Below, piece after piece: positions 805 through 62,354 of a stretch of 64,000 nucleotides of DNA (the first letter of the stretch is position 1; every line of letters starts with the position of its first letter). The notes beneath the pieces were generated by a model. The model was not told the origin of the DNA, ran no database searches, and was given only the letters and a program-made list of their open reading frames with translations. The position numbers and the translations under genes were made by a program. Origin of the DNA: Candidatus Poribacteria bacterium (lineage in GTDB: Bacteria > Poribacteria > WGA-4E > JAJDTR01). Location of the stretch: positions 3,776,001-3,840,000 of the forward strand of contig CBDCTK010000002.1 in the NCBI GenBank assembly GCA_965222225.1, written 5' to 3'.

Positions 805-961
805 CGGCTACTACCCGATGTGGGAGGAGATCAAACGAGTGAATAGCGAGTGATCAAAGGAATGAATAATGACTGCGATAGTCAATCCTGATAGAAATTC
901 TTTTATCTTGCCCCGATTAACCAAGCAGCCGTCAACTGACTGGACAAGGAAGGCGATTGTT

Positions 962-982
962 GTAGGGTGCGCACTGCGCACC
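962..982 (+). repeat. GTAG-type REP palindrome, empty form (GTAGGGTGCGCACTGCGCACC)
   Basis: GTAG followed by the hairpin GGTGCGCA-C-TGCGCACC. The same REP carries an inserted module at 14929-14983 and 56422-56476. Confidence 0.8.
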
Positions 983-1107
983 AGCCTTTTGTTTCTGTCG
1001 TATGATAGCACATTCCTTGCAACAGAAATCCCCGCCAACGCTTCAACCGATTTATAGTCGGGTCATCTTGCCCCGATTAACAGAGGTGCATTTAACCGAG
1101 ACTATGT

Positions 1108-1132
1108 GTAGGAGCGATCTCCAGGTCGCGAT
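1108..1132 (+). repeat. GTAG-type REP, GTAGGAGCGA family
   Basis: GTAGGAGCGATCTCCAGGTCGCGAT. Related minus-strand copies at 1511-1534, 14640-14663 and ~39643-39673. Confidence 0.65.
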
Positions 1133-1598
1133 TCCATAAACCCAAACGTTGTAGGAACGTTCAACTGACTGAACAAGGAAGGATCAAGCGAGTGGATAAC
1201 GAGCGCGATAGAGCCCAAGGCGATAGCTGATCCCGATAGAGATCCTGCACCAGCCCTTGGTTTCTGTCGTACGATAGCAAATCCTGATAGTGAATCCCGA
1301 TACAAAATCCCGTGCGATCAAGCGACTGGATAAGGAGCGATCAACTGAGCGAATAGTGAAGGCGATAGAAACTCAGGATAGAAATTCCTCACGCGACACG
1401 TATCAGGGGATCAAAGGAATGGACAATGGCTGCGATAGAGATCCCTTAATCCGCGATTCAGACAATGCGATAGAGTCCTTATAGACGTCTTCTACCGGTC
1501 ACCGCTTCCTGTCGCGAGCAGCGCTCGCTTCTACAACTCTGTCTCGCGTCGCGAGAAATCAACTGTGTGTTGCGTCTTGCTCAAACGCATATTTTTTG

Positions 1599-1627
1599 TT
1601 GCAAACAATATAGATCTGATATATAAT
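1599..1627 (+). promoter_or_regulatory. Sigma70-type promoter of the nuo operon
   Basis: TTGCAA (1599-1604), 17-nt spacer, TATAAT (1622-1627), ~85 nt upstream of nuoA. Confidence 0.75.
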
Positions 1628-1669
1628 TTAACCTGCTTCAATTTGCAAACGGCTTCTCAATATCCGATT

Positions 1670-1687
1670 TTGTGAAGTTTTTCACAA
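1670..1687. promoter_or_regulatory. Rex (NADH/NAD+ redox-sensing repressor) operator
   Basis: TTGTGAA-GTTT-TTCACAA is an exact match to the TTGTGAA-N4-TTCACAA Rex consensus and lies between the promoter and the nuoA start. Confidence 0.8.
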
Positions 1688-1711
1688 TCACTTGGAAAGA
1701 TAGCAGGGACA

Positions 1712-2116
1712 ATGTTTTTTAACTTCGCAAATGTACTGATTTTCCTTATCGTCGGTTCCGTTTTCGTGGCGCTGAACCTCGCCGTGTCTCGCCTGCTTCA
1801 AACGAAACTTTTCATGGAGGAGAAATTTATCCCGTATGAGTGTGGAGAGGATCCGATTGGCGATACGCGCATCAAGTTCAATACCCGCTTCTATGTCATT
1901 GCCCTCATTTTTTTGATTTTCGACGTTGAGGTGGTATTCCTGTTTCCGTGGGCGGTTGTTTTCCGCGGAATCGGTCTGCTTGCGTTTGTCGAGATGTTAA
2001 TCTTCATCGCCGTGCTGCTGGTTGGACTCGCCTACGTTTGGGCGAAGGGGGATCTTGAATGGATTCGTTCGATTCAGCAGGAGATTCAGGAAAAGCGTGA
2101 AGAAACTGAAGCCTAG
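1712..2116 (+). CDS. nuoA: NADH-quinone oxidoreductase subunit A
   Basis: PYECGEDP and [22 protein letters not shown] motifs, 3 TM helices, first gene of the operon. Confidence 0.97.
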
Positions 2117-2139
2117 CCGGGCGCGGAGGACGATTCGCT

Positions 2140-2730
2140 ATGATTTTTGATGAGAAACTTGACAAAAACATTTTCGTCACATCTGTGGACGCCGTTGCGA
2201 ATTGGGCGCGGGCTTCCTCATTGTGGCCCATGACCTTCGGACTGGCATGTTGCGCGATTGAGTTTATGGCAACGGCGGCTTCCAACTATGACCTGGATCG
2301 GTTTGGGGCGGGCGTCCCGCGTGCGACTCCACGGCAATCGGATCTGTTGGTGATTTCCGGCACCGTCACCCTGAAGATGGCAACGCGAATTAAGCGGCTC
2401 TACGAACAGATGCCCGAACCCAAATACGTAATCTCGATGGGGAGTTGCGCCACGAGTGGCGGTCCCTACTGGCAGCACGGTTATCATGTGCTCAAGGGCG
2501 TCGATAGAATTATCCCTGTTGATGTCTATGTGCCCGGTTGTCCTCCTCGTCCCGAAGCCTTGATCGAAGGCTTGCTGAAGCTCCAGGAGAAGATTAAAAC
2601 ACAAACCGTCGCCAAGCGGTCGTACATTCCGTTCCTGCGAAGGCTCTATACCAAAACCGATCTTGAGGATCAAGAGATTGCGGCAGCGGTGGAGGAAGGC
2701 GCCGAGGAGAAGGAAGAAGCGACTAGCTGA
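2140..2730 (+). CDS. nuoB: NADH-quinone oxidoreductase subunit B
   Basis: [19 protein letters not shown] and VPGCPPRPE (cluster N2 ligands). Confidence 0.98.
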
Positions 2731-2809
2731 CAAACACCCCGAATGAAGCGCGAAAGGAGAGTTGCAACGCAATAGGTTGGTTTCCAGTTCCAAATGCGTT
2801 GATTTATCT

Positions 2810-3292
2810 GTGACATCGGAAGAAATTTACACAAAACTCAAAGGGGTGTTTGGAGACTCTGTCCTGTCCATTCAGGAGGTCGTTCTAGATTCGTTTATCC
2901 TCATCGCACCCGAGGCAATCGCCGAGATTGCCCGTTTTCTCGCCGAAGATAGCGAGTTGGCGTTCGATTCGTTGATGTGCTTAAGCGGGGTTGACTTGAG
3001 CATTAAAGAATCGAACCTTGAAATCGTCTACCATCTCTTCTCAATGACCCACCGTCACACAATCGTCCTTAAAGTTAACCTACCCAAGGAAGATCCGCAC
3101 ATTCCCTCCGTCGAAGATATCTGGAAGACAGCAAATTGGCACGAGCGGGAAGCGTACGATCTCTACGGAATAACCTTTGAAGGACACAGTGATCTGCGGC
3201 GAATCCTGATGCCGGAGGACTGGGAGGGGCACCCGTTACGCAAGGATTACAAGGATCCCGAATTCTATCGGGGGATGCGCGTGCCGTATTGA
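2810..3292 (+). CDS. nuoC: NADH-quinone oxidoreductase subunit C
   Basis: ANWHEREAYDLYGI and RRILMPEDWEGHPLRKDY. The GTG at 2810 is preferred over the TTG at 2762; the start is uncertain. Confidence 0.95.
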   Translation: MTSEEIYTKLKGVFGDSVLSIQEVVLDSFILIAPEAIAEIARFLAEDSELAFDSLMCLSGVDLSIKESNLEIVYHLFSMTHRHTIVLKVNLPKEDPHIPSVEDIWKTANWHEREAYDLYGITFEGHSDLRRILMPEDWEGHPLRKDYKDPEFYRGMRVPY

Positions 3293-3322
3293 TGAATGAG
3301 GATTGCTGTTGCGACTCCTATT

Positions 3323-3384
3323 GTAGGGTGGGATCAAGGGAGCGAATAGCGAATAGCGACTGCGATAGAGATCCACCGCCCACC
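3323..3384 (+). repeat. GTAG REP carrying one inserted module
   Basis: GTAGGGTGGG[ATCAAGGGAGCGAATAGCGAATAGCGACTGCGATAGAGATC]CACCGCCCACC. The empty counterpart GTAGGGTGGGCACCGCCTACC is on the minus strand at 63863-63883. Confidence 0.85.
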
Positions 3385-3619
3385 ATTCCTTATTGAAGAG
3401 GTAAACCACCACTATTTGGGAACGTTTTGTGATATTGACTGCTGGTTCGTCAATACCTTAGGAAGAAATTATAGGCTTGCCGACGGATTAACTAATCGGG
3501 AATCACCAACACGAAATAGTTGTGTTTTTTCCTCAATGAATCGCCGAGCTACGAAGCCAAGAGGCCTCAACCGCCAAAGTCGCAATGTTATTATTCCTTG
3601 TTTCCGAAAGGAGAATATC

Positions 3620-5314
3620 ATGGTGCGCAAAACATCATTAATCGCTATTTTACTATGCCTAACCCTTCTTCTGCTGGGAAGAACCGCCGTGGCCAACATC
3701 CTTACGACCGAAGAGATTGCCGAGAAGGCGCTAAGTGCGACAGTTCTGCTAACGATGAGAGATGCGGACGATAGAGTAATCGGATATGGGAGCGGATTCT
3801 TTGTTTTACCGAATGTTATTGCAACCAACTTTCACGTGATTGAAGGTACACACCGAGGCACCGCCCGTCGCGTTGCTCAAAACAAATCGTATACCCTCAA
3901 ACAGCTTCTTAAGAGCGATGAAAAACAAGATTTGGCGCTGTTCGAAGTATCAGCTCCGGATGTCGAACCGCTTCCCATCGGCGACAGCGGTAGTAGGTCG
4001 TTACGAATCGGCGCGACAGTTTATGTTGCCGGTAATCCGCTGGGTTACTGGTGGGGGACCTTCTCCGAGGGTATTGTTAGCGCCCGTCGAAGTTGGGATG
4101 ATGGAGTGGAGAGGTTACAGATGACAGCTCCGATTTCGCCCGGAAACAGTGGCGGCCCCGTACTTAATAACAGAGGCGAAGTAATAGGTGTTTCCGTCGC
4201 ATCAAGTTCAGATGACAGGGCTCAAAATATCAACTTCGCCGTTCCATCTAGCGAACTCAAGAAACTCGTCGCAGAATTGAATCCCCCGACTGTGAGCCTT
4301 GTTCTCCCTCGGCGATCGAATTGGAATATTGGCGACACAGTTGATGTTTCTCTTAAAATCGACAACGGGACGGACATTGCAGGTTTTCAGGTAACCGTAG
4401 GATTTGATGGTTCCGTTCTTAAATATGTGGAGGCTTTGAAGGGTGATTACATCCTCAGAGGGGATGAGTTCGCACGTAAAATAGACGGCGAAAATCAGGT
4501 GACATTGGCGGCAACGGGCTTCCCCCAGGTAATGGATGACGATGGCGTACTTGCTGTAATTAAGTTTGAAGTTACTGCTTTCAAGCCTTATGGATGGGTA
4601 CTATCCGACCTAATTCTGTCCCGAGCGATTCTCGTGAATCCAGATGGAGGTCGTTCATATCCTCTTGTATCTCATGCGAAGGTATGGGCGCGCCCACTGG
4701 GATTCCAAGAAGATGTAAACGGTGATGGTGATGTAAATATTCTGGATTTACGATCTGTTTTCACCAATTTTGGGGTCCGGGGGAGGAATCATGCGGATGT
4801 CAATAAAGATGGTGTCGTTGATGTCGTTGATTTGGTAAGGGTTGCCTCTGCCATACACACTCCTCTGGGAGCTCCTCCATTCGCTCAAGAAGTTCTTGCG
4901 GGATTCACTGCCACAGAGCTGAAGCAATGGTTGACACAAGCCTCGCAGCTCGGTCTGACGGATCCCACTTCGCTGAAAGGCATTTTCGTTTTGGAGCAAC
5001 TCCTCAAAACATTCGTCCCGAAAGAGACGGCGCTGTTACCCAATTTTCCAAATCCCTTCAATCCGGAGACATGGATTCCGTACCACCTCGCCAGTGCCTC
5101 CGACGTGCAGATTGCGGTATACAACACAAACGGCGCGATGGTACGTCAATGGGACTTGGGACATCGAGAAGCTGGATTCTACACCGATAGAAGCAACGCC
5201 GTATACTGGGACGGACGTAATCGACACGGCCAGTTTATCGCAAGCGGCGTTTATTTTTACTCGTTAACTGCCGGTGATTTTACGGCTACCAGGAAAATGA
5301 TAATCGGAAAGTAA
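3620..5314 (+). CDS. Secreted trypsin-like (S1C) serine protease with cohesin-like, dockerin-like and C-terminal FlgD/T9SS-like sorting domains
   Basis: AAGGAG RBS before ATG 3620 and a signal peptide. Catalytic triad in TNFHV, QDLAL and PGNSGGP. Cohesin-like beta region (IAGFQVTVGFD), dockerin repeats DVNGDGDVNILDL / DVNKDGVVDVVDL, C-terminal NFPNPFNPETWIPY...YWDGRN...SGVYFY. Confidence 0.88.
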   Translation: MVRKTSLIAILLCLTLLLLGRTAVANILTTEEIAEKALSATVLLTMRDADDRVIGYGSGFFVLPNVIATNFHVIEGTHRGTARRVAQNKSYTLKQLLKSDEKQDLALFEVSAPDVEPLPIGDSGSRSLRIGATVYVAGNPLGYWWGTFSEGIVSARRSWDDGVERLQMTAPISPGNSGGPVLNNRGEVIGVSVASSSDDRAQNINFAVPSSELKKLVAELNPPTVSLVLPRRSNWNIGDTVDVSLKIDNGTDIAGFQVTVGFDGSVLKYVEALKGDYILRGDEFARKIDGENQVTLAATGFPQVMDDDGVLAVIKFEVTAFKPYGWVLSDLILSRAILVNPDGGRSYPLVSHAKVWARPLGFQEDVNGDGDVNILDLRSVFTNFGVRGRNHADVNKDGVVDVVDLVRVASAIHTPLGAPPFAQEVLAGFTATELKQWLTQASQLGLTDPTSLKGIFVLEQLLKTFVPKETALLPNFPNPFNPETWIPYHLASASDVQIAVYNTNGAMVRQWDLGHREAGFYTDRSNAVYWDGRNRHGQFIASGVYFYSLTAGDFTATRKMIIGK

Positions 5315-5449
5315 CTTGGACTGCAAGACAGGCACAGACCGGGGTAATCGCACCAGACTCCAAACCCGAGCTTGGATAAGTGGTGCTTTCAAATCATTAC
5401 ACTGTTGACGAAACGCTAATATTGAGAAACACAATCGAGCGGATTTATT

Positions 5450-5483
5450 ATGGCAGCGCCACAACTTGAAAGCAAATTCATAG
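5450..5483 (+). repeat. 34-bp exact copy of the nuoD 5' end
   Basis: ATGGCAGCGCCACAACTTGAAAGCAAATTCATAG is identical to 7649-7682. Confidence 0.95.
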
Positions 5484-5490
5484 TACAATT

Positions 5491-5599
5491 GTAGGGTGGG
5501 ATCAAGGGAGATCAAGCGACTGAATAAGGAGCGATCAACTGACTGGTTAAGGAAGGCGATAGTAGATCCTGATAGAAGATCCCGTGCGATAGAGATCCC
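5491..5599 (+). repeat. GTAG REP half followed by triply nested modules
   Basis: Three GATCAA left ends are followed by three GATAG..GATCC(C/T) right ends in bracket order. Confidence 0.9.
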
Positions 5600-5731
5600 G
5601 TGAAGGATGATGAGTATGAGGCATGGTTGAGCCTATCAATTCGGGGCTTGGGAGAAGCGTACGGGAAGGATGAACCGGAGTATTCTACCAACCTTATTAA
5701 AGAGGTAAACCCTCAGTATGAGGGAAGGTAA
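5600..5731 (+). pseudogene. 3' fragment of a small acidic protein, probably a type II antitoxin
   Basis: Translates VKDDEYEAWLSLSIRGLGEAYGKDEPEYSTNLIKEVNPQYEGR*, which resembles (from recall) C-termini of small proteins found upstream of PemK/MazF toxins. Begins directly after the module cluster, with no RBS. Confidence 0.45.
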
Positions 5732-5796
5732 TGTCATCTAGACCCCAGTTCTCTCAGATTAGTTGAGTTAGAAAGCGGTTAAACAAGACAGAAGAT

Positions 5797-7617
5797 ATGG
5801 ATGCAAATATAGTTAATCTACAGAAACTATTCCATCAACAGGTCTCCTATCGAATTCCCCAATTCCAGAGGCCCTACGCATGGAAAGAAGAGGTCCAATG
5901 GAAACCCCTTTGGGCTGACATACTTAGTCTTGCTGCACGCGTTCTCAACAGGGAAGAGGACGACAGAATACTCCCGCACTTCATGGGAGCTATCGTACTT
6001 CAACAACAGAGAAGCAATACAGGTGAAGTAACTAAAAGACTCGTAGTTGATGGGCAACAGCGACTCACTACCTTGCAACTTCTTATAAAGGCAACAGAAC
6101 AGGTATTTGAAATTCAACAGGATCCGGTAAGAGCCTCCCGATTGCGCGCACTAATAATTAATCAGAACAGCCATTGGGGCGCCGGTGGCGGTGACAACAA
6201 GACCAAAATCAAGCAGTCCAACTTCAACGATCAGAAAGCATTTCACGAAGCTATCGCGGCACCTCATATTGGTGATGAGAACCAATCGTGGGCACTTAAT
6301 GCTTTAAGTTACTTCAAAGAAGAACTGAGCAACTGGCTAAACTACGCCCCGGAAAGCATGAACGGCCGAGCCGATGCGTTCGAAGAAGCGCTGACTCAGC
6401 ATCTAAAAATAGCGGTAATTGACTTGGACGAAGACGAAAAACCTCACGTCATTTTTGAGACTCTGAACGCTAGGGGTGAACCGCTAAAGCAATCAGACCT
6501 TATTAAAAACATAGTTATGTACGAGGCAAATGTCATAGATGATGACGAGCAAGCGAAAAAACTTTGGGGCTTCTTTGACCACGAATGGTGGCAACAAGAT
6601 AGCAAGGAAAGTAGATCATCACCCACAATCCACATCGACAGATTCCTTCGCTACTGGATGGTCATGCGGTCGTTGAAAGATGTTACCGCAAATAGAGTCG
6701 CGTCGGAGTTCAGAAACTACTTAGGAGCCACACAATCATCCATTAAGACTGTTACCTCAGATATCCAAATGGCTGGAGCATGCTACGTGCTAATAGAAGG
6801 AAATTTTCGAGGTTTCCGAAAAAATCCAGAAAGGGAGATTTTCTTCAAACGACTGAAAACCATTGAATTAGGCGTAGTTACCCCTGTGCTTTTATGGCTA
6901 TTCACATCCAAGGTACCGGACGAGCGACAGCAGCGCTGCATTGAGATACTGGAAAGCTACGGGGTGAGGCGGAAACTCTGCGGCTTGCAGACCCAAGGCC
7001 TGAATAAGGTTTTTATCGGTTTACTTCAGGTGCTTGACAGTGAGGGGCCGGATTGCGCCGACATGACTGTTTTACGCTTCTTGAGACGTCAGCACGCTGA
7101 TAGCAGTATATGGCCCAATGATCGTATGCTGCGCGAATATCTTACTACCAGTCAAATGAAGGGTAATTCTCCTTGGAAGAAGATGGTACTAGAAGCCATT
7201 GAAGTACACTTGCGAAGTGATAGATCTGAGCAGCTCGGGTCAACCAGTAATTTAGAGATTGAACATGTTATGCCACAGACGTGGCAGACGGAGCACTGGC
7301 CGCTGTGGCCTGAAAATTCAAATCAAGATGAAGCTGAAAGCGCCAGAGACGAAGCTATACAAAAAATCGGAAATCTAACTCTGACGTCTGAAAAATTAAA
7401 TAAAATCCTAAGGAACGGCCCATGGCATGAAAAACGGCTAACGCTGGCTAATCATAGCAGTCTGTTTCTTAACAAGACATTACTTGATGATGCCCCCGGT
7501 GTTTGGGATGAAGCAGCCATTCAAAGACGCTGTCAATGGATAACTGAAAAAATCTTGCAGATTTGGCCCTCTGCTGAAGAGTTCGCCGAATCAGCCGCAC
7601 AATCTTCACAAATCTAA
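5797..7617 (+). CDS. DUF262 + DUF1524 (GmrSD-like, type IV restriction family) protein
   Basis: IPQFQRPYAW, VVDGQQRLTTL and IFETLNARG (DUF262). EIEHVMPQ...IGNLTL...LN (DUF1524 HNH-like). More AT-rich than the nuo genes. Confidence 0.92.
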   Translation: MDANIVNLQKLFHQQVSYRIPQFQRPYAWKEEVQWKPLWADILSLAARVLNREEDDRILPHFMGAIVLQQQRSNTGEVTKRLVVDGQQRLTTLQLLIKATEQVFEIQQDPVRASRLRALIINQNSHWGAGGGDNKTKIKQSNFNDQKAFHEAIAAPHIGDENQSWALNALSYFKEELSNWLNYAPESMNGRADAFEEALTQHLKIAVIDLDEDEKPHVIFETLNARGEPLKQSDLIKNIVMYEANVIDDDEQAKKLWGFFDHEWWQQDSKESRSSPTIHIDRFLRYWMVMRSLKDVTANRVASEFRNYLGATQSSIKTVTSDIQMAGACYVLIEGNFRGFRKNPEREIFFKRLKTIELGVVTPVLLWLFTSKVPDERQQRCIEILESYGVRRKLCGLQTQGLNKVFIGLLQVLDSEGPDCADMTVLRFLRRQHADSSIWPNDRMLREYLTTSQMKGNSPWKKMVLEAIEVHLRSDRSEQLGSTSNLEIEHVMPQTWQTEHWPLWPENSNQDEAESARDEAIQKIGNLTLTSEKLNKILRNGPWHEKRLTLANHSSLFLNKTLLDDAPGVWDEAAIQRRCQWITEKILQIWPSAEEFAESAAQSSQI

Positions 7618-7648
7618 ACGTGTTTCATAAGGTCTAAACGAGTTCACC

Positions 7649-8827: not shown

Positions 8828-8862
8828 AACCGGTGAAGAGCGCAGAACCGATTTAACTCGCC

Positions 8863-8882
8863 AAGGAGTGCGATAGAGCTCC
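8863..8882 (+). repeat. Right half of the module in the nuoD-nuoH spacer
   Basis: AAGGAGTGCGATAGAGCTCC. Confidence 0.6.
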
Positions 8883-8920
8883 ACTAGCCACTGTTTTTAT
8901 ATCTTCCAACTAGGAGTTGA

Positions 8921-10186: not shown

Positions 10187-10207
10187 CATAGGGAGGCATG
10201 GTTCACG

Positions 10208-10861
10208 ATGAATAAGTATTTCTTTAATATCTATAGAGCGCTCTATACGGTGCTCATCGGCATGCGCATAACGTTTAAGCAGATGTTCCAGCACGCAGTT
10301 ACGCACCAATATCCCTATGAACATCCGTTCGAGAAAAAGCGAAATGTACGCGAGATTCCCAAGGGCTATCGGGGACAACTGTTCAATCGGATTGAGGACT
10401 GTATCGGTTGCAAGAAGTGCGAAATGATCTGTCCTGTTGACTGCATCGCCATCACGACCCAAAAACTTCCCAAAGGCGAACGGCTTTGGGATAGCATGAA
10501 TGTGCTCCATCTTACGGATCGCACGGAGGTTGTCGGTTTCGTCGAAGGCGAGGAAAAGGTTGCTCCAAACACAACGGTTACCGTTAAAACTCGCGATGGG
10601 GAGACACTGACAATCCCGAGCGACGATATAAATCGTGTCGTCGAACGGAAACCTGTCATCTTCTATCTTGACAAGTTTGACATTGATATGTCGCTCTGCA
10701 TGTACTGCGGGCTTTGTACCGAGGTTTGCCCGACGGAGTGCTTGATAATGATAGATGAGATGAGGGGCATTGCGTATTCAACGTTTGACAGAATGGACTT
10801 GATATTTCCGTTCGCCAAGCCCGATATGTACGATCAAGCGAGTGATCAAGGGAGTGAATAA
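10208..10861 (+). CDS. nuoI: NADH-quinone oxidoreductase subunit I with an internal insertion
   Basis: CIGCKKCEMICP and CMYCGLCTEVCP are the two [4Fe-4S] motifs. The last residues (DQASDQGSE*) are encoded by the repeat module. Confidence 0.93.
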   Translation: MNKYFFNIYRALYTVLIGMRITFKQMFQHAVTHQYPYEHPFEKKRNVREIPKGYRGQLFNRIEDCIGCKKCEMICPVDCIAITTQKLPKGERLWDSMNVLHLTDRTEVVGFVEGEEKVAPNTTVTVKTRDGETLTIPSDDINRVVERKPVIFYLDKFDIDMSLCMYCGLCTEVCPTECLIMIDEMRGIAYSTFDRMDLIFPFAKPDMYDQASDQGSE

Positions 10862-11058
10862 CGACCGCGATAGAACTCCCATAGAGATCCCTCAAGCGAG
10901 TGAATAACGACCGCGATAGCTAATCCCGATAGTAACTCCCTCAAGCTACTGGAAAAGGAGCGATCAACTGAACGGATAGTGAAGGAGCAACTGACCGATA
11001 GGGAAGGCGGTAGAGATCCCATAGAAAGTCTTGATAGTGAATCCTAATAGCAAATCCC
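10832..11058 (+). repeat. Cluster of nested modules overlapping the nuoI stop
   Basis: About 6 left ends and 8 right ends. Clean copy at 10844-10880. Stacked right ends (GTAGAGATCCC-ATAGAAAGTCTT-GATAGTGAATCCT-AATAGCAAATCCC) at 11010-11058. Confidence 0.9.
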
Positions 11059-11127
11059 TCGGGATAAAGTTCCCTTTTCAAGAAAAATCTCGGTTTCGAC
11101 CTACTATTTACCAAACACTTACAGATT

Positions 11128-11960: not shown

Positions 11961-11964
11961 TAAG

Positions 11965-12359: not shown

Positions 12360-12371
12360 GGAAAGGGGCGT

Positions 12372-14588: not shown

Positions 14589-14717
14589 GTGGGGAATATC
14601 TGGTTTAGAGCCTGTTTGGTCATTTGAAAGGGGCTTTTGTCGCGAGCTGGAGTTCGCTCCTACAAACCAGACACGAAGCAGAGAAGATTTCACCTTCGAT
14701 TTGATTTGATGATCAAG

Positions 14718-14769
14718 GTCGGTCTGGATTGCCAAATCCAGACCGACCGTCGGACTTGGCAATCCGACG
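14718..14769. repeat. Two adjacent inverted palindromes (REPIN-like pair)
   Basis: GTCGGTCTGGATT-GCCA-AATCCAGACCGAC followed by CGTCGGACT-TGGC-AATCCGACG. The same GGATTGCCAAATCC core is at 54151-54164. Confidence 0.6.
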
Positions 14770-14796
14770 GGCGCAGAGATGTGTCGGTCAGACTTA

Positions 14797-15167
14797 GAGC
14801 CTGTTTGAAAATTCATTTCGGGTAGAACTTTTGCCCTGAAACCGATCAAATGAGCGAATAGCGAATGTGATAAATGTGATAGAAATCCCTATTTTCTTGA
14901 AAACTCCGTTTCTTTCTTGCGCAATCCCGTAGGGTGCGATCAAAGGAATGAATAATGACTGCGATAGAGATCCCCTGCGCACCAGCCTTTGTGAGCCCCA
15001 GCGGGGATCAAGCAAGTGGATAACGATCGAGCGACTGAATAAGGAGCGCGATAGAAATCCCGTGCGATTAGGAATCCTATAGGTGTATAGCAGGCGACCA
15101 CAAAAGCATGAAAAAGCCGCGCCCAAGGTGACCGAAATTGCTTTGCCACCTATTTTCAAGCAGGCTC
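14797..15167. mobile_element. MITE / internally deleted IS (IS5-like ends) in the nuoL-nuoM spacer
   Basis: TIRs GAGCCTGTTTGAAAAT (14797-14812) and ATTTTCAAGCAGGCTC (15152-15167) match at 15/16. TTA on both flanks (14794-96, 15168-70). No transposase. A further left-end-like TTAGAGCCTGTTTG is at 14605-14618. Confidence 0.75.
14844..15077 (+). repeat. Module copies inside the MITE
   Basis: One copy at ~14844-14889, one at 14938-14974 inside REP 14929-14983, and a nested pair at 15006-15077. Confidence 0.88.
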
Positions 15168-23544: not shown

Positions 23545-23641
23545 AGCGAGCGAATAGCGAGTAGGATTTTCTATCGCGTTGGGATCTCTGTAGGATCTCT
23601 ATCGCGGCCGCTATCCACTCAGTTGATCGTTCCCTTGATCC
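23545..23641 (-). repeat. Nested modules on the minus strand plus one partial plus-strand copy
   Basis: The reverse complement of 23564-23640 reads GATCAAGGGAAC[GATCAACTGAGTGGATAGCGGCCGCGATAGAGATCC]TACAGAGATCCCAACGCGATAGAAAATCC. Confidence 0.85.
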
Positions 23642-47648: not shown

Positions 47649-47696
47649 ATGGTGTAAAATACGGCTTGCTAGTGAATCGGAGAGCTAGGAGATTAA

Positions 47697-47999: not shown

Positions 48000-48001
48000 C
48001 G

Positions 48002-50845: not shown

Positions 50846-50889
50846 TCCCTTCATGAACTTATTTCTGCTTTCACGATTCTATCCCCACC

Positions 50890-52437: not shown

Positions 52438-52552
52438 AAGATTACATTCCCGCTTCTACGCTGCAATCCTTGTTCAGTCGCTTGATGTATCCGTTCTCCC
52501 GATCTTGACCAAAGAACCAATCGACATAAGCCTATGAGGCTCAAGACAGACT

Positions 52553-54010: not shown

Positions 54011-54256
54011 GGGTAATCTCCTCAATTCTTGTTATCTCACCCAAGTTGCCAACCTTTCTCGTAGGTCGGGCTTCTATCCCGACCCACTCAACGAGGAACA
54101 TTGCAAACTGAGACTATGCGATCGAAATCAAGTCAAATATCGCCCGCAGTGGATTGCCAAATCCACTGCCTTAGGTGCGGGAAACTGGTAATTAGAACGA
54201 AATACAATACTCGAAAAGTGAAAATCCCGGAATCTCTGAATTGGTAGCAACTTGGG

Positions 54257-55213: not shown

Positions 55214-55417
55214 TGAACCCCTCTTGACTGGCGGCGGCGATGACCTAACGATGGCTGTGTGTCCGCGAGGATGGTTCTTGTAAGTGCAGGCGATGTTTGA
55301 TACAATGATAGCAGTTATCGAAAACGGTGTCAAACGAATTGATTATCACGGATTGTGTGGGATGGAGTGTTGGGTTTCACTCGGATTTCGGCGCTTTTTG
55401 GGCGAAGGGGAGAAAAA

Positions 55418-56398
55418 ATGCGATTCAAGTTGACACCTAGATCTATACTGTTTGCGGTGCTGTGTGTCTGTCTGACGAGTGGGGAGCTGTGGTTGAGAAA
55501 CGGACTCGCCTTCAACACAGGTCGAATTGTTTTTACATCCATGAGAGATGGCACCAATGAAATCTATGTAATGGATGCCGATGGAGGAAACCAAGAAAGA
55601 CTGACAAACCATCCAACGTATGACTTCGATCCGGATTGGTCTTCTGACGGGAAGAAGATTGCATTCGTTTCCACCCGAATCGGCAACGGTTTTAAAATCT
55701 ACGTAATGGACGCCAATGGAAAGAACCCGATTAGACTGACAAGTGAACTGTCGGAGAAGCAGCCAGACTGGTCTCCCGATGGGCAAAAGATCGCTTTCAC
55801 CGTCCTCCCAGATAAAGAAGATTTGGTACCTCATATCGCCGTGATGGATGCTGATGGAAATAATCGTGTGAGGCATGAAGACCACGCGATGGAGCCATCA
55901 TGGTCTCCCGATGGGGAAGCGATTGCATTCGTATCCTGGAGACATGGGGGCAATGAAATTTACATGATAGGCGCTGACAGACAGGGGCTTAAAAGGGTGA
56001 CGCGCGATTTGGAACCTAAAAACAGGCCATCGTTTTCTCCCGACGGACAACGGATTGCATACTATGCCTGGCACGAAGGCGAAGGATTCGATCACATCTA
56101 TGTGGTGGACACTGATGGTAGAAATCGCAAAAGGCTTACGCACAATCAAGAGCATCATTCGCAGCCCGCATGGTCTCCTGATGGACAGACGATTGCATAT
56201 GTGATGTCTAACGATATTTTTTTCGGCGGAGCAACGATTCACTTGATGACCGCCGATGGAAAATATCTTAAGCAACTTAGCGATGTCCATGATGCACACG
56301 ATTATCAGCCCGACTTTAGCCCGATAGGACTAGCTGTGTCCCCCACTTCCAACAAAATCACAATCTGGGGGAGGCTTAAGCTCGACATTGTGCAATAG
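55418..56398 (+). CDS. TolB-like PD40-repeat beta-propeller protein (paralog 1)
   Basis: Signal peptide; repeated P.WSPDG..IAF and IYVMDADG blades. Confidence 0.92.
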   Translation: MRFKLTPRSILFAVLCVCLTSGELWLRNGLAFNTGRIVFTSMRDGTNEIYVMDADGGNQERLTNHPTYDFDPDWSSDGKKIAFVSTRIGNGFKIYVMDANGKNPIRLTSELSEKQPDWSPDGQKIAFTVLPDKEDLVPHIAVMDADGNNRVRHEDHAMEPSWSPDGEAIAFVSWRHGGNEIYMIGADRQGLKRVTRDLEPKNRPSFSPDGQRIAYYAWHEGEGFDHIYVVDTDGRNRKRLTHNQEHHSQPAWSPDGQTIAYVMSNDIFFGGATIHLMTADGKYLKQLSDVHDAHDYQPDFSPIGLAVSPTSNKITIWGRLKLDIVQ

Positions 56399-56421
56399 TA
56401 CACTTCATGAATTGCCATCTT

Positions 56422-56476
56422 GTAGGGTGCGATCAAAGGAACGAATAATGATTGCGATAGAGATCCCCTGCGCACC
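56422..56476 (+). repeat. GTAG REP carrying one inserted module (56431-56467)
   Basis: Near-identical to 14929-14983; empty form at 962-982. Confidence 0.9.
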
Positions 56477-56632
56477 AGCCTTTGAAAGCGCCAGCGACGC
56501 GACGGGTCATTGAAAACCTCGCCAGCGTTGAGGGCGTCGCTTAATGGTTGGAAGTGCGTCCAAACAACTCACGTTATTGCGCTCTAAACCAGATTTTCAC
56601 CGCTCATTTTATCCACAACTAAGGAGGGCAAA

Positions 56633-57607
56633 ATGCAATTCAAACTGACACCTAGACTTATACTGTTTGCGGTGCTGTGTGTCTGTCTGACGAGTGAGGA
56701 ACTGTGGTTGAGAAACGCACTCGCCTTCAACACAGGTCGAATTGTTTTCACTTCCCTGAGAGATGGCAACACTGAAATCTATGTAATGGATGCAGATGGA
56801 GGAAACCAAGAAAACCTGACAAACAATCCAGCGTACGACCATGTTCCGGATTGGTCTCCTGACGGGACGAAGATTGCATTCGTTTCCGACCGAAACGGCG
56901 GCGCATCTCAAATCTACGTAATGGATGCCGATGGAAAGAACCCGATTAGACTCACGGACGGACGGCGGCATAAGTCACATCCAGACTGGTCTCCTGATGG
57001 ACAAAAGATTGCATTCACCGTCAACCCGGGTTGGATAAACGATTGGGTACATCATATCGCCGTGATGGATGCTAATGGAAATAATCGTGAGAGGCTTGAA
57101 GACCAGGCGTCGGGGCCATCGTGGTCTCCGGATGGAAAACAGATTGCATTCGTGTCCTGGAGAGACGGGAACGGTGAAATTTACGTGATAGGCACTAACG
57201 GACATGGGCTGAAAAGAGTGACGCACGATTTAGTAGGTCAACACAGACCGTCGTTTTCTCCCGACGGACGACGGATTGCATACATTGCGGAGCACGAAGG
57301 ATTCCTTCACATTTATGTAGTGGACTCCAATGGAAAGAATCTACAGAGGCTTACGCACAATGAAGAGAATCATTGGGGGCCCGCATGGTCTCCTGATGGA
57401 CAGACGATCGTATATTACGTCTGGGACGGCATCTTGGAGGGAAATCTTCACGGCACGATTCACTTGATGGCCGCCAATGGAAGATATATTAGACAACTTA
57501 GCGATGCGCGCGATCATAATCCCGACATTAGCCCGCTAGGATTAGCTGTGTCCCCCGCTTCCAGCAAAATCACAATCTGGGCGAGGCTGAAGAACCTGTT
57601 TGAATAG
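56633..57607 (+). CDS. TolB-like PD40-repeat beta-propeller protein (paralog 2)
   Basis: Tandem duplicate of 55418-56398 with long identical nucleotide tracts at the 5' end. Confidence 0.92.
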   Translation: MQFKLTPRLILFAVLCVCLTSEELWLRNALAFNTGRIVFTSLRDGNTEIYVMDADGGNQENLTNNPAYDHVPDWSPDGTKIAFVSDRNGGASQIYVMDADGKNPIRLTDGRRHKSHPDWSPDGQKIAFTVNPGWINDWVHHIAVMDANGNNRERLEDQASGPSWSPDGKQIAFVSWRDGNGEIYVIGTNGHGLKRVTHDLVGQHRPSFSPDGRRIAYIAEHEGFLHIYVVDSNGKNLQRLTHNEENHWGPAWSPDGQTIVYYVWDGILEGNLHGTIHLMAANGRYIRQLSDARDHNPDISPLGLAVSPASSKITIWARLKNLFE

Positions 57608-57748
57608 TGGAAAGTCATTTCTGGTTGTAATGAAAGCGCGAATGCCCTCTTGTATGATTTCTCACGGATTTCAGTTTAATCCAACCTACGCACCAAGTAA
57701 TAACCTACTCAAATTCAATATTGAAAAAAACCATCAAGGAACTTCAAT

Positions 57749-58783
57749 ATGCCAAGAGAACTTGTTGCTATCTCTTTACGAAACCCGGTCCTCCGCGAGT
57801 ATGAGGAGTCGGAACTCAAGCCCGAAGAGGTCAGGATAAGAAGCCTCTTCTCGGCGCCCAAACACGGGAGTGACCTTCGCACCTATCGGGCGGATACCAA
57901 AGATTATTCGAAGCCGTTTGATAAAGAGCGGCGCCTCCATGCCGGAACACCAAAATCCCCGACGTTTCCAATGAAATTGGGGAATATGACGGCAGGACAC
58001 GTTGTTGAAGTCGGGGGAGAGGTGACCGATTTTGAGGTAGGAGACCGCGTATTCGGATACCTGCCCATCCGTGAAACCCATACCGTTGATGCGCAGAGAT
58101 TGAAGAAAGCGCCCGATGGAATGGCACCCGAAGCCATCGTCTACTCGGATCCGGCCGGAGTAGCGCTCGGAGCCATCCGCGAGAGCAAACTGCGTATCGG
58201 CGATCGTGTTTCCGTGCACGGACTCGGCGCTATCGGGCAGATGGCGCTGCAGCTTGCTCGACTTCAAGGCGCGCGGTGGATAGCGGCAACCGATCCAATC
58301 CCGCTGCGCTGTGAGCTCGCCAACAAGCATGGCGCCGATCTTGTCGTTAATCCGGTCGCTCAAGACGCGGGCTTCGTCATCAAAGATCAGACGGACAAAA
58401 TCGGCGTAGATGTTGCCCTTGAGACGAGCGGGAACTATGCCGCTTTGAACGATGCATTGCGTGCCGCGGGTTATGGCGGGACGATTGTCTCGTCGGCGTA
58501 TTATACCGGCGACTCCCACGCTCTGAGTCTTGAAGGCGAATGGCACCGAAATCGGCTCACGATTATCTCCAGTCGAGATGTGAGTCAGCCCCTTCGTGAC
58601 CATCCGCTGTGGGATTCCAAACGCATCCATCAAGAGGCGTTTGCGCTGCTGCAGGAGGGGCGGCTTTCGGTGGAGGGTTTAATCCATCCTATCGTCACCT
58701 TCGACGAATCGGCTGAAGCCTACCGCGAAATCGACGAAGCGCCGGAGCTTAGCATTAAGCTGGGAATTCGGTACGATATCTAA
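57749..58783 (+). CDS. MDR (zinc-binding alcohol dehydrogenase-like) oxidoreductase
   Basis: G.VVEVGGEVTDFEVGDRV (GroES-like), VHGLGAIG Rossmann motif, GVDVALETSG. Confidence 0.85.
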   Translation: MPRELVAISLRNPVLREYEESELKPEEVRIRSLFSAPKHGSDLRTYRADTKDYSKPFDKERRLHAGTPKSPTFPMKLGNMTAGHVVEVGGEVTDFEVGDRVFGYLPIRETHTVDAQRLKKAPDGMAPEAIVYSDPAGVALGAIRESKLRIGDRVSVHGLGAIGQMALQLARLQGARWIAATDPIPLRCELANKHGADLVVNPVAQDAGFVIKDQTDKIGVDVALETSGNYAALNDALRAAGYGGTIVSSAYYTGDSHALSLEGEWHRNRLTIISSRDVSQPLRDHPLWDSKRIHQEAFALLQEGRLSVEGLIHPIVTFDESAEAYREIDEAPELSIKLGIRYDI

Positions 58784-58799
58784 CAAAGGAGATCATGAT

Positions 58800-59843
58800 T
58801 TGCAACTTCTATCGAATGAAGTCATCTATCACGATGGCAAACACAACGCGTTTACGTCCATGGTGCGTTGGAATGACAAATACTGGGTAGCCTTCAGAAA
58901 CGGCGCCTCTCACAAATCCGATGACGGTCGCCTCATTGTCATGAATTCAAGCGATCTGGTGACGTGGTCTGAGCCGCAGGAGGTCATCGACACCGATATC
59001 GACGACCGGGATCCGGCTGTATTCGTTTGCGATGATCGGTTATTCCTTGTCAGTATGTCCTACGAACGCAAGCTGCATGAGGGGGAAAAGCAGCGGCGCC
59101 TCGTTAGTATGAGAAGCTACGTCGTCAGCAGCAGCGATGGCGTAAACTGGACGCAACCGCAAATGGCTTTGCCGGAGCATCGGGTCATCTGGTGGGTATC
59201 GTCTGGTCCCGACGCACTCTATGGGTCTGTGTACGGTGCGGGTACGGCGAACGAAGGCGCCGATTATTTTCGGTGGACGGAACTCTGGCGGAGTACGAAC
59301 GGATTAGAATGGGAGAAGGTTGGCATCATTTCCGACGAAAATCGGGCGACGGAGTGCGCGCTGGCTTTTCTACCGGACAAGCGGTTGGTTGCTTTTGTAA
59401 GGCACGATGAACACGACAAGCCGGAGATCAAGATTGCTTCGCCCCCATATCGTGAATGGGAGACCGCCGTGGAACTCGGTTTCAGGAACAATGGACCCGC
59501 TATCGGACGTGTCGGGGATAAGCTGGTAACCGCGACCAGAGCCATATTCGAAGATCCCAACACACCACTCGCGGATGACCTCTGCAGAGAACGGCGAAGG
59601 GGCATGATTATGGGCGTGTTCGATCCGGATACGCTCCAATGGGAGCCTGCCTTGGCGATTCCCCACGCCCGCGGGGTTATGAGTCCCAACGATCCGGACG
59701 GTCACGCGGACTCGGGCATGAATTGGCCCGATGTGTCGTATGCCTCTATCATGGACTTGGGCGATGGAAACTTCGTGATGATTTATTATGAAGGGTTTAA
59801 GGGCCCGCCCTCCGATATTCGTGCGGCAATGCTAAGGATGTAG
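58800..59843 (+). CDS. Sialidase-like / BNR beta-propeller protein
   Basis: HNAFTS, DDRDP, Asp-boxes SSDGVNW and STNGLEW, DVSYAS. Confidence 0.7.
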   Translation: MQLLSNEVIYHDGKHNAFTSMVRWNDKYWVAFRNGASHKSDDGRLIVMNSSDLVTWSEPQEVIDTDIDDRDPAVFVCDDRLFLVSMSYERKLHEGEKQRRLVSMRSYVVSSSDGVNWTQPQMALPEHRVIWWVSSGPDALYGSVYGAGTANEGADYFRWTELWRSTNGLEWEKVGIISDENRATECALAFLPDKRLVAFVRHDEHDKPEIKIASPPYREWETAVELGFRNNGPAIGRVGDKLVTATRAIFEDPNTPLADDLCRERRRGMIMGVFDPDTLQWEPALAIPHARGVMSPNDPDGHADSGMNWPDVSYASIMDLGDGNFVMIYYEGFKGPPSDIRAAMLRM

Positions 59844-60134
59844 GTAAGTTTTAATACTAAGGTTGGTCTACTGAAGCGACTAGGAAGGCTGGGGTTGGAA
59901 GCATGGAAGAGGGGAAGAGTGGAAGGTTCGCTCCGACGGGGCCCTCAAACCTCTGGAGCGGCATCATGGGAGCCAAAAGCTAGATAAAGCCTAACTAAAT
60001 GTGTCAAGCTAGCTAGAGTTGGGTTTCACCGTGTTCAACCCAACCCACAGGCTACACATCTCTTTTGATGTCTTCCCAACGGAACGTCTTGCCTTCAGCT
60101 AGATGCTTCTTTGCAGCTTCAAGAAATGAAATTT

Positions 60135-60182
60135 GTACCGCAATCTGTTAGTTTGCGTTCACAATCTAACAGATTGTGTTAC
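60135..60182. repeat. REPIN (inverted REP pair) upstream of the RAYT gene
   Basis: GTACCGCAATCTGTTAGTTTGCG followed by the inverted partner CACAATCTAACAGATTGTGTTAC. Confidence 0.85.
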
Positions 60183-60206
60183 ATTCCGTGTAGAATAGAG
60201 AAACGG

Positions 60207-60929
60207 ATGAGCCATTTTGATCGCAAACTGTTCTACCAGCGTAACCTGCCGCATATACAACCGCCGGGTGCAACTTTCTTCGTCACGTTCAACCTTGCAG
60301 GTTCCCTACCACGAGCCGTACTGCAGCAGCGGAACGCAGAGAAACGCCAACTTGACGCAGAAAAATCGCACCTTCTAAAGTTGCACGGTGCCTCTCATTT
60401 CGAGGTGGTCGGAGATATAACATCTGAGCAAAAACAGGAACATCGTGAATGGAACCGGCGGTGGTTCCGAAAGTTTGAAACAGCGTTGGATAATGCACAA
60501 AGTGGGCCTCTATGGCTCAAAGACGAGCGGATTGCTAAAGAGGTAGCAGAGAGCCTGCGCTACCGAGATGGGAAAGTATACCGCTTGGACGCTTATTGCA
60601 TCATGGCAAATCATGTACATGTTGTGTTTGCTCCACTTGCAATACAACCTTCCGAAGAGGCGCAAACTAACAGTTTGCGGTACAACACACTTGCCTCCAT
60701 TATGCAATCGCTCAAAGGTTACACAGCGTGGAAGGCTAATCGTGTATTAGGGCGCAGTAACGCATTCTGGCACCATGAAAGTTACGATCATAGTGTGCGG
60801 AACACAAGCGAGTGGCAACGGATTGTCACCTACGTTCTCAATAACCCTGTAAAAGCGGGTTTAATCAAGGATTGGGAAAAGTGGCAGTGGAGTTATTTCC
60901 GGGGCTTTCACGGTATCGCAAACTGTTAG
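60207..60929 (+). CDS. REP-associated tyrosine (Y1/HUH) transposase, RAYT
   Basis: RNLPH...TFFVTF, AYCIMANHVH (HUH), SLKGYTA, FWHHESYDH, YVLNNPVKAGL...W.WS. Flanked by REPINs. Confidence 0.9.
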   Translation: MSHFDRKLFYQRNLPHIQPPGATFFVTFNLAGSLPRAVLQQRNAEKRQLDAEKSHLLKLHGASHFEVVGDITSEQKQEHREWNRRWFRKFETALDNAQSGPLWLKDERIAKEVAESLRYRDGKVYRLDAYCIMANHVHVVFAPLAIQPSEEAQTNSLRYNTLASIMQSLKGYTAWKANRVLGRSNAFWHHESYDHSVRNTSEWQRIVTYVLNNPVKAGLIKDWEKWQWSYFRGFHGIANC

Positions 60930-61082
60930 TTTGCGGCCACAATCCAACAGATTGTGCTACAGAAAGAGAGACAGTTCAACAGCATGAGTAGCATTCTCGT
61001 ACCGCAAACTGTTTGTGTGCGTTCACAATCTAACAGATTGTGGTACAGAAGAGAGACGGTTTAATAGCATGAATAGGATTCT
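60913..61082. repeat. Two tandem REPIN+spacer units (~86 bp each) downstream of the RAYT gene
   Basis: REPINs at 60913-60960 and 60999-61046, each followed by AGAA(A)GAGAGAC.GTT.AA.AGCATGA.TAG.ATTCT. Confidence 0.88.
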
Positions 61083-61325
61083 TTGATGTCGCCCCAGTAA
61101 TTTAGCTACCGGTTTTTCGCTCCAGAGAAGCAGTGTGTTTGTAAAATGTGCACAGTTTCTATTCTTCCTAGTCAATGCGTAAGATGAACTTCCATATTGA
61201 AACTTGCTCAAATGTTTTAGATGTCAGGATATATGGCATATAGCCCGATTCCCGTCGAATCTCCAAAATCGGCACTGAGTCTGGATGTGTTGTTCAAGAG
61301 GTACAACTAGCAAAGGAGTTAACTC

Positions 61326-62273
61326 GTGAACCAATCATTCAACGTCCCCCGACGCAGGTGGGGCAAAAGCGAAATCTCGATTCCGGTCATCCCGTTCGGC
61401 ACGCAGGGATTCGGCAACAATTTTGGTCATGTCACCGACGACGAAGCCTGCGAACTCATGCGGCACTCGATAGATATCGGAATAAACCATTTCGATACCT
61501 CGCTCTGCTACGGCGACTCGCAGCGCAAGGTCGGCGTCGCGCTCAAGAGCGGCGCCATCAGGCGCGACGAGATCGTCCTAAGCGCGCGAATCTGTTGTAA
61601 TTTCACATACGAGTGGAACGGAACGGATTTCGAGCGGAATTCAAAGGATCCCGACTATTCCTCCGACTACGCTATGGCAAATATCGAGAAACAGCTGGAG
61701 CTAACGGGAACCGACCATTTCGACGCCATGTCTATCCACGACCCGGTCGAAATCGAGCCGACCTTGGCGAAGGAGGGAACGTTCGAATGCCTCAAGAAGT
61801 TGAAATCCCGCGGCATCGTCCGTAATATCGGGTATGCAATGAATCCGCACGATTTCCATCTCACGGCAATGGAAACGGGCGAGGTGGACGTGCTGCTCAC
61901 GTTCAACGACTACAATCTGTTCGGCACGACCGCCGCGGATGATATTCTTCCCGCCGCCGCGGAACGAGACATCGGCGTGCTTAACGGATGGTCGATAAAA
62001 CGGGGGCTTTTGACGGGAATCGATCTCTCCGGACGCGATCGAAGTAATTCGGAGGTCGATCGGGCAATCAAGATGCGTCAGTGGTGCATTGACAACGGCT
62101 ACAGCCTATTGGCGATGGCGCTGGGGTTTTGCTTGCGGGAGGAGCGCATCCACGGCAACCCCATCGGCAGCCTGAACATCGAACAGTTGGAACTGAACGC
62201 GCGAGCGGTGAGCGAACCGTTGCCCGAGGGCGCGCTTGACCGATTTTTGGAACAGGAGTGGGCCAAGTCGTGA
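61326..62273 (+). CDS. Aldo/keto reductase family protein
   Basis: GINHFDTSLCYGDS, IHDP, LKSRGIVRNIG. AAGGAG RBS. Confidence 0.87.
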   Translation: MNQSFNVPRRRWGKSEISIPVIPFGTQGFGNNFGHVTDDEACELMRHSIDIGINHFDTSLCYGDSQRKVGVALKSGAIRRDEIVLSARICCNFTYEWNGTDFERNSKDPDYSSDYAMANIEKQLELTGTDHFDAMSIHDPVEIEPTLAKEGTFECLKKLKSRGIVRNIGYAMNPHDFHLTAMETGEVDVLLTFNDYNLFGTTAADDILPAAAERDIGVLNGWSIKRGLLTGIDLSGRDRSNSEVDRAIKMRQWCIDNGYSLLAMALGFCLREERIHGNPIGSLNIEQLELNARAVSEPLPEGALDRFLEQEWAKS

Positions 62274-62315
62274 GGCGTGTATGTTGAGCGCTTCACTTGA
62301 GGAGGATGCGCAGAC

Positions 62316-62354
62316 AGTTCTATCGCGCTCCTTATTCAGTCACTTGATCCCTAC
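62316..62354 (-). repeat. Single module on the minus strand preceded by GTAG
   Basis: The reverse complement reads GTAGG-GATCAAGTGACTGAATAAGGAGCGCGATAGAACT. Confidence 0.85.

Follow-up and report, generated by a model that had tools for sequence, protein, structure and literature searches.

What is the short repeat that recurs throughout a 64,000-nt stretch of the genome of a Candidatus Poribacteria bacterium (assembly GCA_965222225.1, contig CBDCTK010000002.1, positions 3,776,001 to 3,840,000 of the forward strand; the whole stretch is called the window below), and does it move? The original prediction, drawn from these letters alone, described roughly 25 copies of a structured unit of about 36 nt with a covarying tandem G.A hairpin, and interpreted them as a tiny non-autonomous mobile element. 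The repeat is a non-coding hairpin of 34-36 nt, copied about a thousand times in the genomes of two sponge-dwelling Poribacteria genera. We are highly confident of its structure, strand specificity, mobility, target choice and distribution; how it is moved is a matter of graded likelihood.

Copies were counted with the pattern ATCAANNGANNGRNYANNGANNGYGATAG. At up to 2 mismatches there were 14 matches in the window (0.00 expected; shuffles with any match, 0/100), and the genome-wide extraction suggested earlier yielded 687 exact matches and 1124 at up to 3 mismatches in the source genome (G000; 5.70 Mb, 2 contigs). The reversed pattern, used as a control, had 0 matches in all 41 genomes searched. 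A covariance model built on 150 distinct copies returned 17 window hits at E<=1, of which 15 were full length (E<=7.8e-4) and two partial; truncated 5' parts (heads) seen by eye at 829, 1316, 5500, 5510, 10832, 10962 and 15006, a 3' remnant near 8861 and further 3' parts (tails) bring the total near the 25 of the original hand count. By crude longest-ORF calls (ORF, open reading frame), 811 of 937 copies fall outside ORFs. The concern that the clusters might be assembly artefacts can be set aside, because the family is also present in 13 further independent assemblies and on contigs of four public runs.

A profile of 940 copies defines the unit, on the top strand, as ATCAA, the hairpin XY-GA-ZW-GRATA-W'Z'-GA-Y'X', GCGATAG, 2-3 nt, ATC and 1-2 pyrimidines. 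The end of the tail, TCC(C/T) in the first consensus, is better written as ATC plus one or two pyrimidines. The top strand folds as a small rod of 17 nt in which two helices of 2 bp, free in sequence but complementary, are separated by tandem G.A pairs and capped by a GRATA loop closed by a G.A pair. ATCAA flanks the hairpin on its 5' side in 97-100% of copies, and GATAG lies 3' of it.

Pairing of the four variable positions was far above chance. In the 940 copies, with 206 distinct stem combinations, the four pairs were canonical or G.T in 95.4, 94.4, 96.6 and 97.0%, compared with 52.5, 52.6, 49.7 and 79.5% expected from the make-up of the columns. The covariation test used the 150 distinct copies of the model, 13 from the window and 137 drawn randomly from another 190 distinct ones at loci of other Poribacteria. 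In this set 94.8% of cells were paired vs. 63.5 +/- 1.3% in shuffles (as high in 0/500), the covariation score was 0.989 vs. 0.348, and 223 cells vs. 36 had changed on both sides; controls with slid partners were 23-59% paired. Since G.T outnumbers A.C (498 vs. 108 among 4496 stem cells) and both GA dinucleotides are 96-99% conserved, the written strand is the folding strand. An A hardly ever stands 5' of the G of a putative G.A pair, and the pair that closes the loop is pyrimidine-purine throughout. Sheared G.A pairs have a context preference, which the bases beside the G.A positions fit. The claim of a one-strand fold under structural selection is thus upheld, and the eight stem combinations first listed all read as stated.

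Two outer pairings proposed at the same time fared less well. ATC can pair with GAT, but both are nearly invariant and give no covariation support, and pairing of the 5' GATC with a terminal GATC is not general, as GATC occurs in the tails of only 358 of the 1124 copies. A pair between R14 and T16 was considered and rejected; the two share no mutual information. The stems were likewise rejected as target guides and are regarded as structural, because their positions share no more than 0.07 bit with the flanks, compared with 0.44-1.21 bit between the partners of the four stem pairs.

That the element is mobile is seen most directly where copies have inserted into one another. A truncated copy, always ending in G, directly precedes 180 of 712 cores; such outer copies break off after positions 13, 18-20, 24 or 26, and their remainder resumes after the inner copy, still complementary to the outer 5' half. 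Another set of sites is provided by a hairpin repeat of the repetitive extragenic palindrome (REP) type, here called REP-B, with the form GTAGGGTG-CGCACTGCGCA-CCAGCC. Among its 153 regex matches in the source genome, 101 were empty, 15 carried an additional 34 nt and 17 an additional 35 nt. The insertions lie at TGCG^CAC in either arm, and they represent independent events because they carry different stems. Many further filled sites have empty paralogues, although counts of such empty and filled pairs are not counts of independent events. All cases examined had an exact 5' junction, G|ATCAA. The net gain measured 34, 35 or 36 nt, and at the 3' junction 0-3 host bases were lost or replaced by pyrimidines.

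Orthologous sites also differ between species. Downstream of a REP-associated tyrosine transposase (RAYT) gene lies a REP that carries the element in G000, G001 and G005 but not in G002, G009 and G004. In a conserved gene of 530 aa without a Pfam family (locus L172; G000 C2:3116353-3117945) the element is inserted in frame: there is no insert in G005, G001 and G003, 36 nt are added in G002, and 72 nt in G000, where a second copy is nested in the first and the frame stays open. A further 19 copies lie deep within crude ORFs of at least 200 aa, including those of LRR, GHL15 and dockerin proteins and a DNA methylase. Operons such as nuo hold many copies in the gaps between their genes; across nine congeners with a syntenic nuo operon, what these gaps contain differs completely, and the nuoI-nuoJ gap measures 113-114 nt without a copy in G003 and G006 and 296 nt with about six heads in G000. 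Nested copies, empty and filled paralogous sites, and orthologous sites occupied or vacant according to species bear out the reading as a tiny non-autonomous mobile element, and the comparison of orthologous loci that had been proposed as its test gave the predicted presence/absence differences. On contigs of the four public runs, 14588 is joined to 14724 and 14784 to 15167 (window 14589-15166), which suggests a close strain whose nuoL-nuoM spacer lacks 14785-15166, the block holding the copies; these are short-read contigs that break at repeats, and their joints, with sides of only 20-30 nt, mostly connect different copies.

Insertion takes place directly 3' of a G, found at -1 in 91% of copies; the base before it (-2) is usually C or G (87%). 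The target is not duplicated, and the element enters it in one orientation. Favored targets are GTAG-type REP hairpins, CRISPR repeats and copies of the element itself. Among 710 cores on the main contig, 179 were nested in the top strand of another copy, 31 in the other strand of a copy and 20 after a tail, 8 lay in CRISPR-repeat sequence and 281 elsewhere; GTAG occurred within 16 nt upstream at 191 of the 710 sites (peak at 6 nt), compared with 6.4% of random intergenic (C/G)G sites. Even though the REP-B stem is a perfect palindrome, at least 32 insertions were in its GTAG strand vs. 5 in the other. Relative to flanking genes orientation was near random (both genes co-oriented at 298 sites, both opposed at 250). 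It was related to local GC skew, with the folding strand on the C-rich strand in 389 of 563 single-orientation clusters and, outside GTAG and self contexts, for 162 of 238 copies. Empty REP-B copies showed the same bias (116/157). That the element tracks GC skew as REP-B does points to a replication-linked DNA process, but with the irregular skew profile of this assembly the direction of the bias is difficult to interpret.

Within the window the copies are on the + strand unless stated otherwise. The first cluster opens with a nested pair (829-900), composed of a truncated outer head (829-852), a full inner copy (model hit 850-890) and the outer tail TGATAGAAATTC. It is followed by a degenerate partial copy (936-957; GTCAAC...GCGATTG) that adjoins an empty GTAG-type REP-B hairpin (962-986), by a full copy at 1180-1220 with additional GATAG...ATCC tail units (to 1260), and by a group at 1316-1447 with a head-only unit (1316-1338) and full copies at 1337-1377 and 1407-1447. 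At 3330-3377 a full copy with a 7-nt slippage duplication, AGCGAAT (3341-3359), lies within a REP-B-like hairpin between nuoC and a protease gene. The region 5500-5602 has three heads, one of only 10 nt, then three tails, with a full inner copy at 5531-5571, and is read as nested insertions. In the nuoD-nuoH gap a decayed 3' half (8861-8882) is also found in the closest congener, G005, and the nuoI-nuoJ gap holds an array of about 6 heads and 8 tails (10832-11060; model hits at 10842, 10888 and 10983). A full copy with a degenerate tail occupies the nuoL-nuoM gap (14842-14882); another lies in the 5' arm of a REP-B hairpin (14936-14976; GTAGGGTGCG^...CTGCGCACCAGCC), and at 15006-15075 a full inner copy (15023-15063) separates an outer head, truncated after position 20, from the rest of the outer copy (GTGCGAT...). 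Both strands are represented at 23546-23630, by a partial copy at 23546-23562 (+) and a full copy at 23590-23630 (-). The full copy at 56429-56469, inside a REP-B hairpin, is the commonest composite form, with stems AG/AT..AT/CT, and the last, at 62311-62351 on the - strand, is a full copy 3 nt past a GTAG (CTGTAGGG^ATCAA).

Other repeats and genes accompany these copies. The source genome has several GTAG-headed REP families, for example GTAGGGTGCGCACTGCGCACC, GTAGGAGCGATCTCCAGGTCGCGA and GTAGGGAACAACGATCGTTGTTCCCTAC (window 962-986, 14928-14990 and 56421-56482). Its RAYT-type Y1 genes number at least three, and a separate repeat flanks each of them. A CRISPR array outside the window, with a 37-nt repeat starting GTAGCAACC... 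(L176:600-3000, equal to G000 C2:2705600-2708000), adjoins cas3, cas7/DevR and cas1 genes; element copies in both orientations are inserted in the stems of its repeats, and composite units of two inverted copies around a core of about 130 nt several times replace spacers. In the nuo gaps of congeners (L128-L136), tandem heptamer arrays of ACTAGCC, ACTGACC or ACTAAAC flank gene starts and recall the heptamer arrays of heterocystous cyanobacteria. The 11-subunit nuo operon of the window is otherwise contiguous, but between nuoC and nuoD (3416-7617) it is interrupted by a gene for a trypsin-like protease that is secreted (cohesin, dockerin, Por_Secre_tail) and by a restriction gene of the GmrSD type.

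The distribution of the element is narrow. In a scan of 185,579 species genomes, the 80 matches listed were all titled Candidatus Poribacteria bacterium. Among 151 sampled genomes of the phylum, high copy numbers occurred only in genus g1 (8/8 plus G000) and genus g4 (4/4), which belongs to another family; the others had 1-13 matches in four genomes and none in 134. The covariance model, run over 61 genomes of the order, gave the same picture. All 22 model hits in G059 were on 4 contigs, and the sporadic copies in G059, G010, G043 and G041 are probably binning contamination and not true presence. Because many g4 tails read TCTT... instead of AGATCC, the conserved core is taken to be the 29 nt from ATCAA to GCGATAG. 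Viral contigs gave 0 matches, and a plasmid collection gave only chance hits (E>=2), none of them in cyanobacteria.

By what means is such a unit moved? An element that encodes nothing has to be moved in trans, and in our view it most likely travels as folded single-stranded DNA at the replication fork, where a host HUH/Y1 enzyme (RAYT or IS200-type) would read the hairpin with its G.A pairs together with the fixed ATCAA and GCGATAG flanks, and would join the new copy immediately 3' of a G, usually in a hairpin-forming repeat. Taken as a whole, the statement that this is a family of 34-36 nt insertions moved in trans as folded single-stranded DNA by a Y1/RAYT-type host enzyme is given slightly less than an even chance; the single-stranded intermediate and the Y1 catalyst are the parts that we infer. 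RAYTs, as described in two papers (PMC3333891, PMC8266576), require non-complementary bases in the hairpin and a motif beside it, work on one strand of single-stranded DNA, cut at sites chosen via that motif and catalyze strand exchange. Because of these properties a RAYT-like route is the best available analogy. DNA is favored over RNA by the near-random gene orientation, the tracking of GC skew and the absence of an RVT_1 hit in the closed g4 genome G012. The original prediction had likewise invoked HUH (Y1) transposases; the link would still be a plausible one, with no Y1 gene tested being specifically tied to the element.

Several findings weigh against a Y1 enzyme. All 14 high-copy genomes searched have PF01797 (Y1), but so do 20 of the 27 others searched, in which copy numbers are not high. 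None of the five Y1 hits in the source genome qualifies as a dedicated partner; intact Y1/RAYT genes there include C2:3080255-3080728 and C2:3727535-3728017. RAYT-1 (C2:3080255-3080728) was rejected, as its own REP flanks it in every genus and the element is found only inside that REP; it is also present in genera without the element and was not found in the element-carrying g4 genomes G021 and G027. A 248-aa Y1 protein has the wrong distribution, with occurrences only in G000 and G005 and a fragment in G009. A cognate RAYT flanked by the element as its own repeat (a REPtron) was not found at the RAYT loci examined; in all genera examined these loci were flanked by GCCCCAGMGGGGCGACAGGTG or GTAG-type REPs, and the element occurred there only as an insertion within such a REP. 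The element has no REP-type GTAG on its 5' side, and one hairpin instead of the two at IS200/IS605 ends; its 3' junction is inexact, unlike that of HUH 'peel and paste' transposition. Predicted stability is low (RNA -2.7 to -11.2 and DNA 0 to -5.3 kcal/mol); a weak fold under strong structural selection suggests a structure recognized by a protein. Finally, the folding strand lies mostly on the C-rich strand; if the G-rich strand is the leading strand, this is opposite to what has been reported for IS608. The inexact 3' junction, the missing GTAG and the lack of a co-distributed gene are the main difficulties.

A truncated RAYT (C2:3560268-3560492) flanked by inverted copies was likewise discarded as a partner, its intact orthologues being flanked by GTAG REPs. 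Among other enzyme families, IS110-type genes (PF01548) were not found in G000 or G012, and a search for Y2_Tnp gave no hits, but the control genomes were equally silent. A test for TnpB-type genes (PF07282) found none in three genomes with the element (G000, G005, G012) and 52 and 14 in two without it (G018, G036), which may be coincidence in a comparison of five genomes only. At the left edge of the window (1-804 and upstream; L179:6578-8804) lies a two-gene module of 176 aa and 598 aa, present in 4 copies in the source genome and 2-8 in relatives. The 598-aa protein has Walker A/B-like motifs, a nuclease-like part and weak hits to terminase large subunits, with no Pfam match and nothing found by a PDB sequence search with its profile. 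Homologues of at least 60% identity occur in g1 (8/9 plus G000) and g4 (4/4), and none was found in 47 other genomes searched; G008, with hundreds of element copies, is an exception in which no homologue was found.

Movement at the DNA level might instead depend on some non-Y1 catalyst. This could be a nuclease/ligase or a repair function that joins a released single strand of about 36 nt at a nick or 1-nt gap beside a G, in extruded hairpins, or the task could fall to an enzyme family not yet linked to transposition, for which the multi-copy terminase-like module is the lead. Consistent with this, no Y1 gene co-distributes with the element, the 3' junction often resembles the swap of a single host base for the element, and the 598-aa P-loop and nuclease-like protein is multi-copy, with close homologues only in g1 and g4. 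Its co-distribution, however, concerns two clades only and has an exception in G008, terminases cut double-stranded DNA, and no Pfam or PDB sequence match backs any catalytic assignment. We consider a non-Y1 catalyst unlikely. Nor need a dedicated enzyme be involved at all. In replication template switching (copy choice) between hairpin repeats, a nascent strand ending ...SG would jump to another copy, copy it and return with little or no homology. Such a process would explain a variable 3' junction with 0-3 host bases lost, targets that are hairpin-forming repeats and stall replication, the correlation with GC skew, and the slippage duplications within copies (as at 3341-3359). It is harder to reconcile with a 5' junction that is always exact, with inserts quantised at 34-36 nt and with the strand asymmetry in the palindromic REP-B stem (at least 32 vs. 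5), and the strong selection on pairing and G.A bases points to recognition of a defined structure; we judge template switching to be rather improbable.

A transcribed hairpin that is reverse-spliced or reverse-transcribed into DNA would be a further route. An RNA route was reportedly proposed in the study of Nostoc small dispersed repeats; RNA often contains tandem G.A motifs, two of the three top-strand copies folded as RNA had the proposed fold as their minimum-energy structure, and contigs of a metatranscriptome run include sequence of the element, which does not show transcription. Against these points, RVT_1 gave only one weak match in G000 (27.5 bits) besides none in G012, orientation is nearly gene-independent (298 vs. 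250) yet tied to GC skew, and no Rfam ribozyme or other family matched. We consider an RNA intermediate very unlikely. That the repeat is not itself mobile, but a regulatory or protein-binding hairpin of the host that hitch-hikes on REPs and spreads by local duplication, might be suspected from the many copies between operon genes such as nuo and from the commonest stem variant (63 of 940 copies), which sits in a REP-B composite that is itself repeated. Nesting, independent REP-B insertions with different stems at the same position, and in-frame insertions in a conserved gene with 0, 1 or 2 copies by species already largely refute this explanation; insertions in CRISPR repeats and the weak co-orientation with transcription also speak against it, and it retains almost no credibility. 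A broader possibility, which we regard as a minority one, is mobilization outside any described transposase family: a free folded strand of about 36 nt would be joined beside a G in extruded hairpin DNA by a nuclease/ligase-type host activity, by the co-distributed terminase-like module or through a chemistry of its own that the G.A-rich fold possesses.

Whichever way it is moved, the element is among the smallest mobile elements known, and its effects on the host are visible: REPs and a CRISPR array are broken up, operon spacers are rebuilt between species, and blocks of 12 residues are added to proteins. It also makes a cleaner study system, with copies numbering roughly a thousand in each genome, about 14 carrier species whose genomes are closed, element-free sister genera, a sharp structural grammar, and unambiguous empty and filled sites. 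Once found, the mobilizing enzyme could give a tool for the insertion of short single-stranded DNA.

How does the element compare with known systems? The original prediction did not recognize it as a described family, and the libraries searched held no match: Rfam gave 0 matches at gathering thresholds in the whole window, with only a chance hit at E<=1 in 780-1500 (15.6 bits vs. a threshold of 90), and no paper on such repeats in Poribacteria was among the literature matches listed, although a similar kind is known in Nostocaceae. REPs and REPINs, which go with RAYT (TnpAREP) Y1 enzymes, resemble it as high-copy, mostly extragenic, strand-specific imperfect hairpins with non-complementary stem bases and a fixed flanking motif. 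The element agrees with the REP definition of a 20-40 nt imperfect palindrome in hundreds of mostly extragenic copies (1124 copies; 811/937 outside ORFs), shares its orientation bias relative to GC skew with REP-B, and lives in a genome with several RAYTs. In contrast to REPs it does not have a conserved tetranucleotide, GTAG or CGTC, on the 5' side of its hairpin foot, it flanks no RAYT gene as that gene's own repeat, and it uses REPs as landing sites. The 'peel and paste' transposition of IS200/IS605 insertion sequences is similar in that a short target receives the insert on its 3' side and is not duplicated, a single strand is active, the hairpin is recognized by its structure and there is a link to replication; IS200/IS605-derived elements have two subterminal hairpins, one at each end, and their junctions are exact and lie 3' of four or five fixed nucleotides, whereas the element has one hairpin, a target of about 2 nt (SG) and an inexact 3' junction. 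Terminal inverted repeats and target-site duplications, as in classical MITEs, were not seen when empty and filled sites were compared. IS1397 (cited in PMC3116915) also prefers REP hairpins as landing sites, but insertion sequences of this kind are kilobase-sized and encode their own transposase.

The closest known relatives in kind are the small dispersed repeats (SDRs) SDR1-8 of Nostoc punctiforme and related cyanobacteria, which are likewise very short, non-coding and highly repeated. They reportedly measure 21-27 nt, with nested insertions and compensatory changes, as described by Elhai and colleagues in 2008 (Genome Res 18:1484); a hairpin with compensatory changes, nested copies and insertion into other repeats are found in the element and are said to hold for the SDRs as well. 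To our knowledge, mobile elements of oligonucleotide size have been described only this once, in the Nostocaceae. According to papers that cite this work (PMC5861425, PMC4390886, PMC3116915), SDR5 inserts precisely between nucleotides 3 and 4 of GCGATCGC, i.e. after GCG, which resembles the element's insertion after (C/G)G, and the SDRs are reported to be absent outside Nostocaceae, with their origin regarded as open. The element differs in its length of 34-36 nt, in its phylum and in its targets, GTAG REPs and CRISPR repeats as opposed to HIP1 or heptamer arrays. We rate it as no member of the REP, IS200/IS605-derived or MITE families, because it lacks their defining features, and as a variant of the SDR kind, because it is longer, belongs to another phylum and has other landing sites. 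A second case in an unrelated phylum suggests that the phenomenon is general, and if mobilization outside the known transposases proved true, the element and the Nostoc SDRs would together form a distinct class of 'oligonucleotide-sized' mobile DNA.

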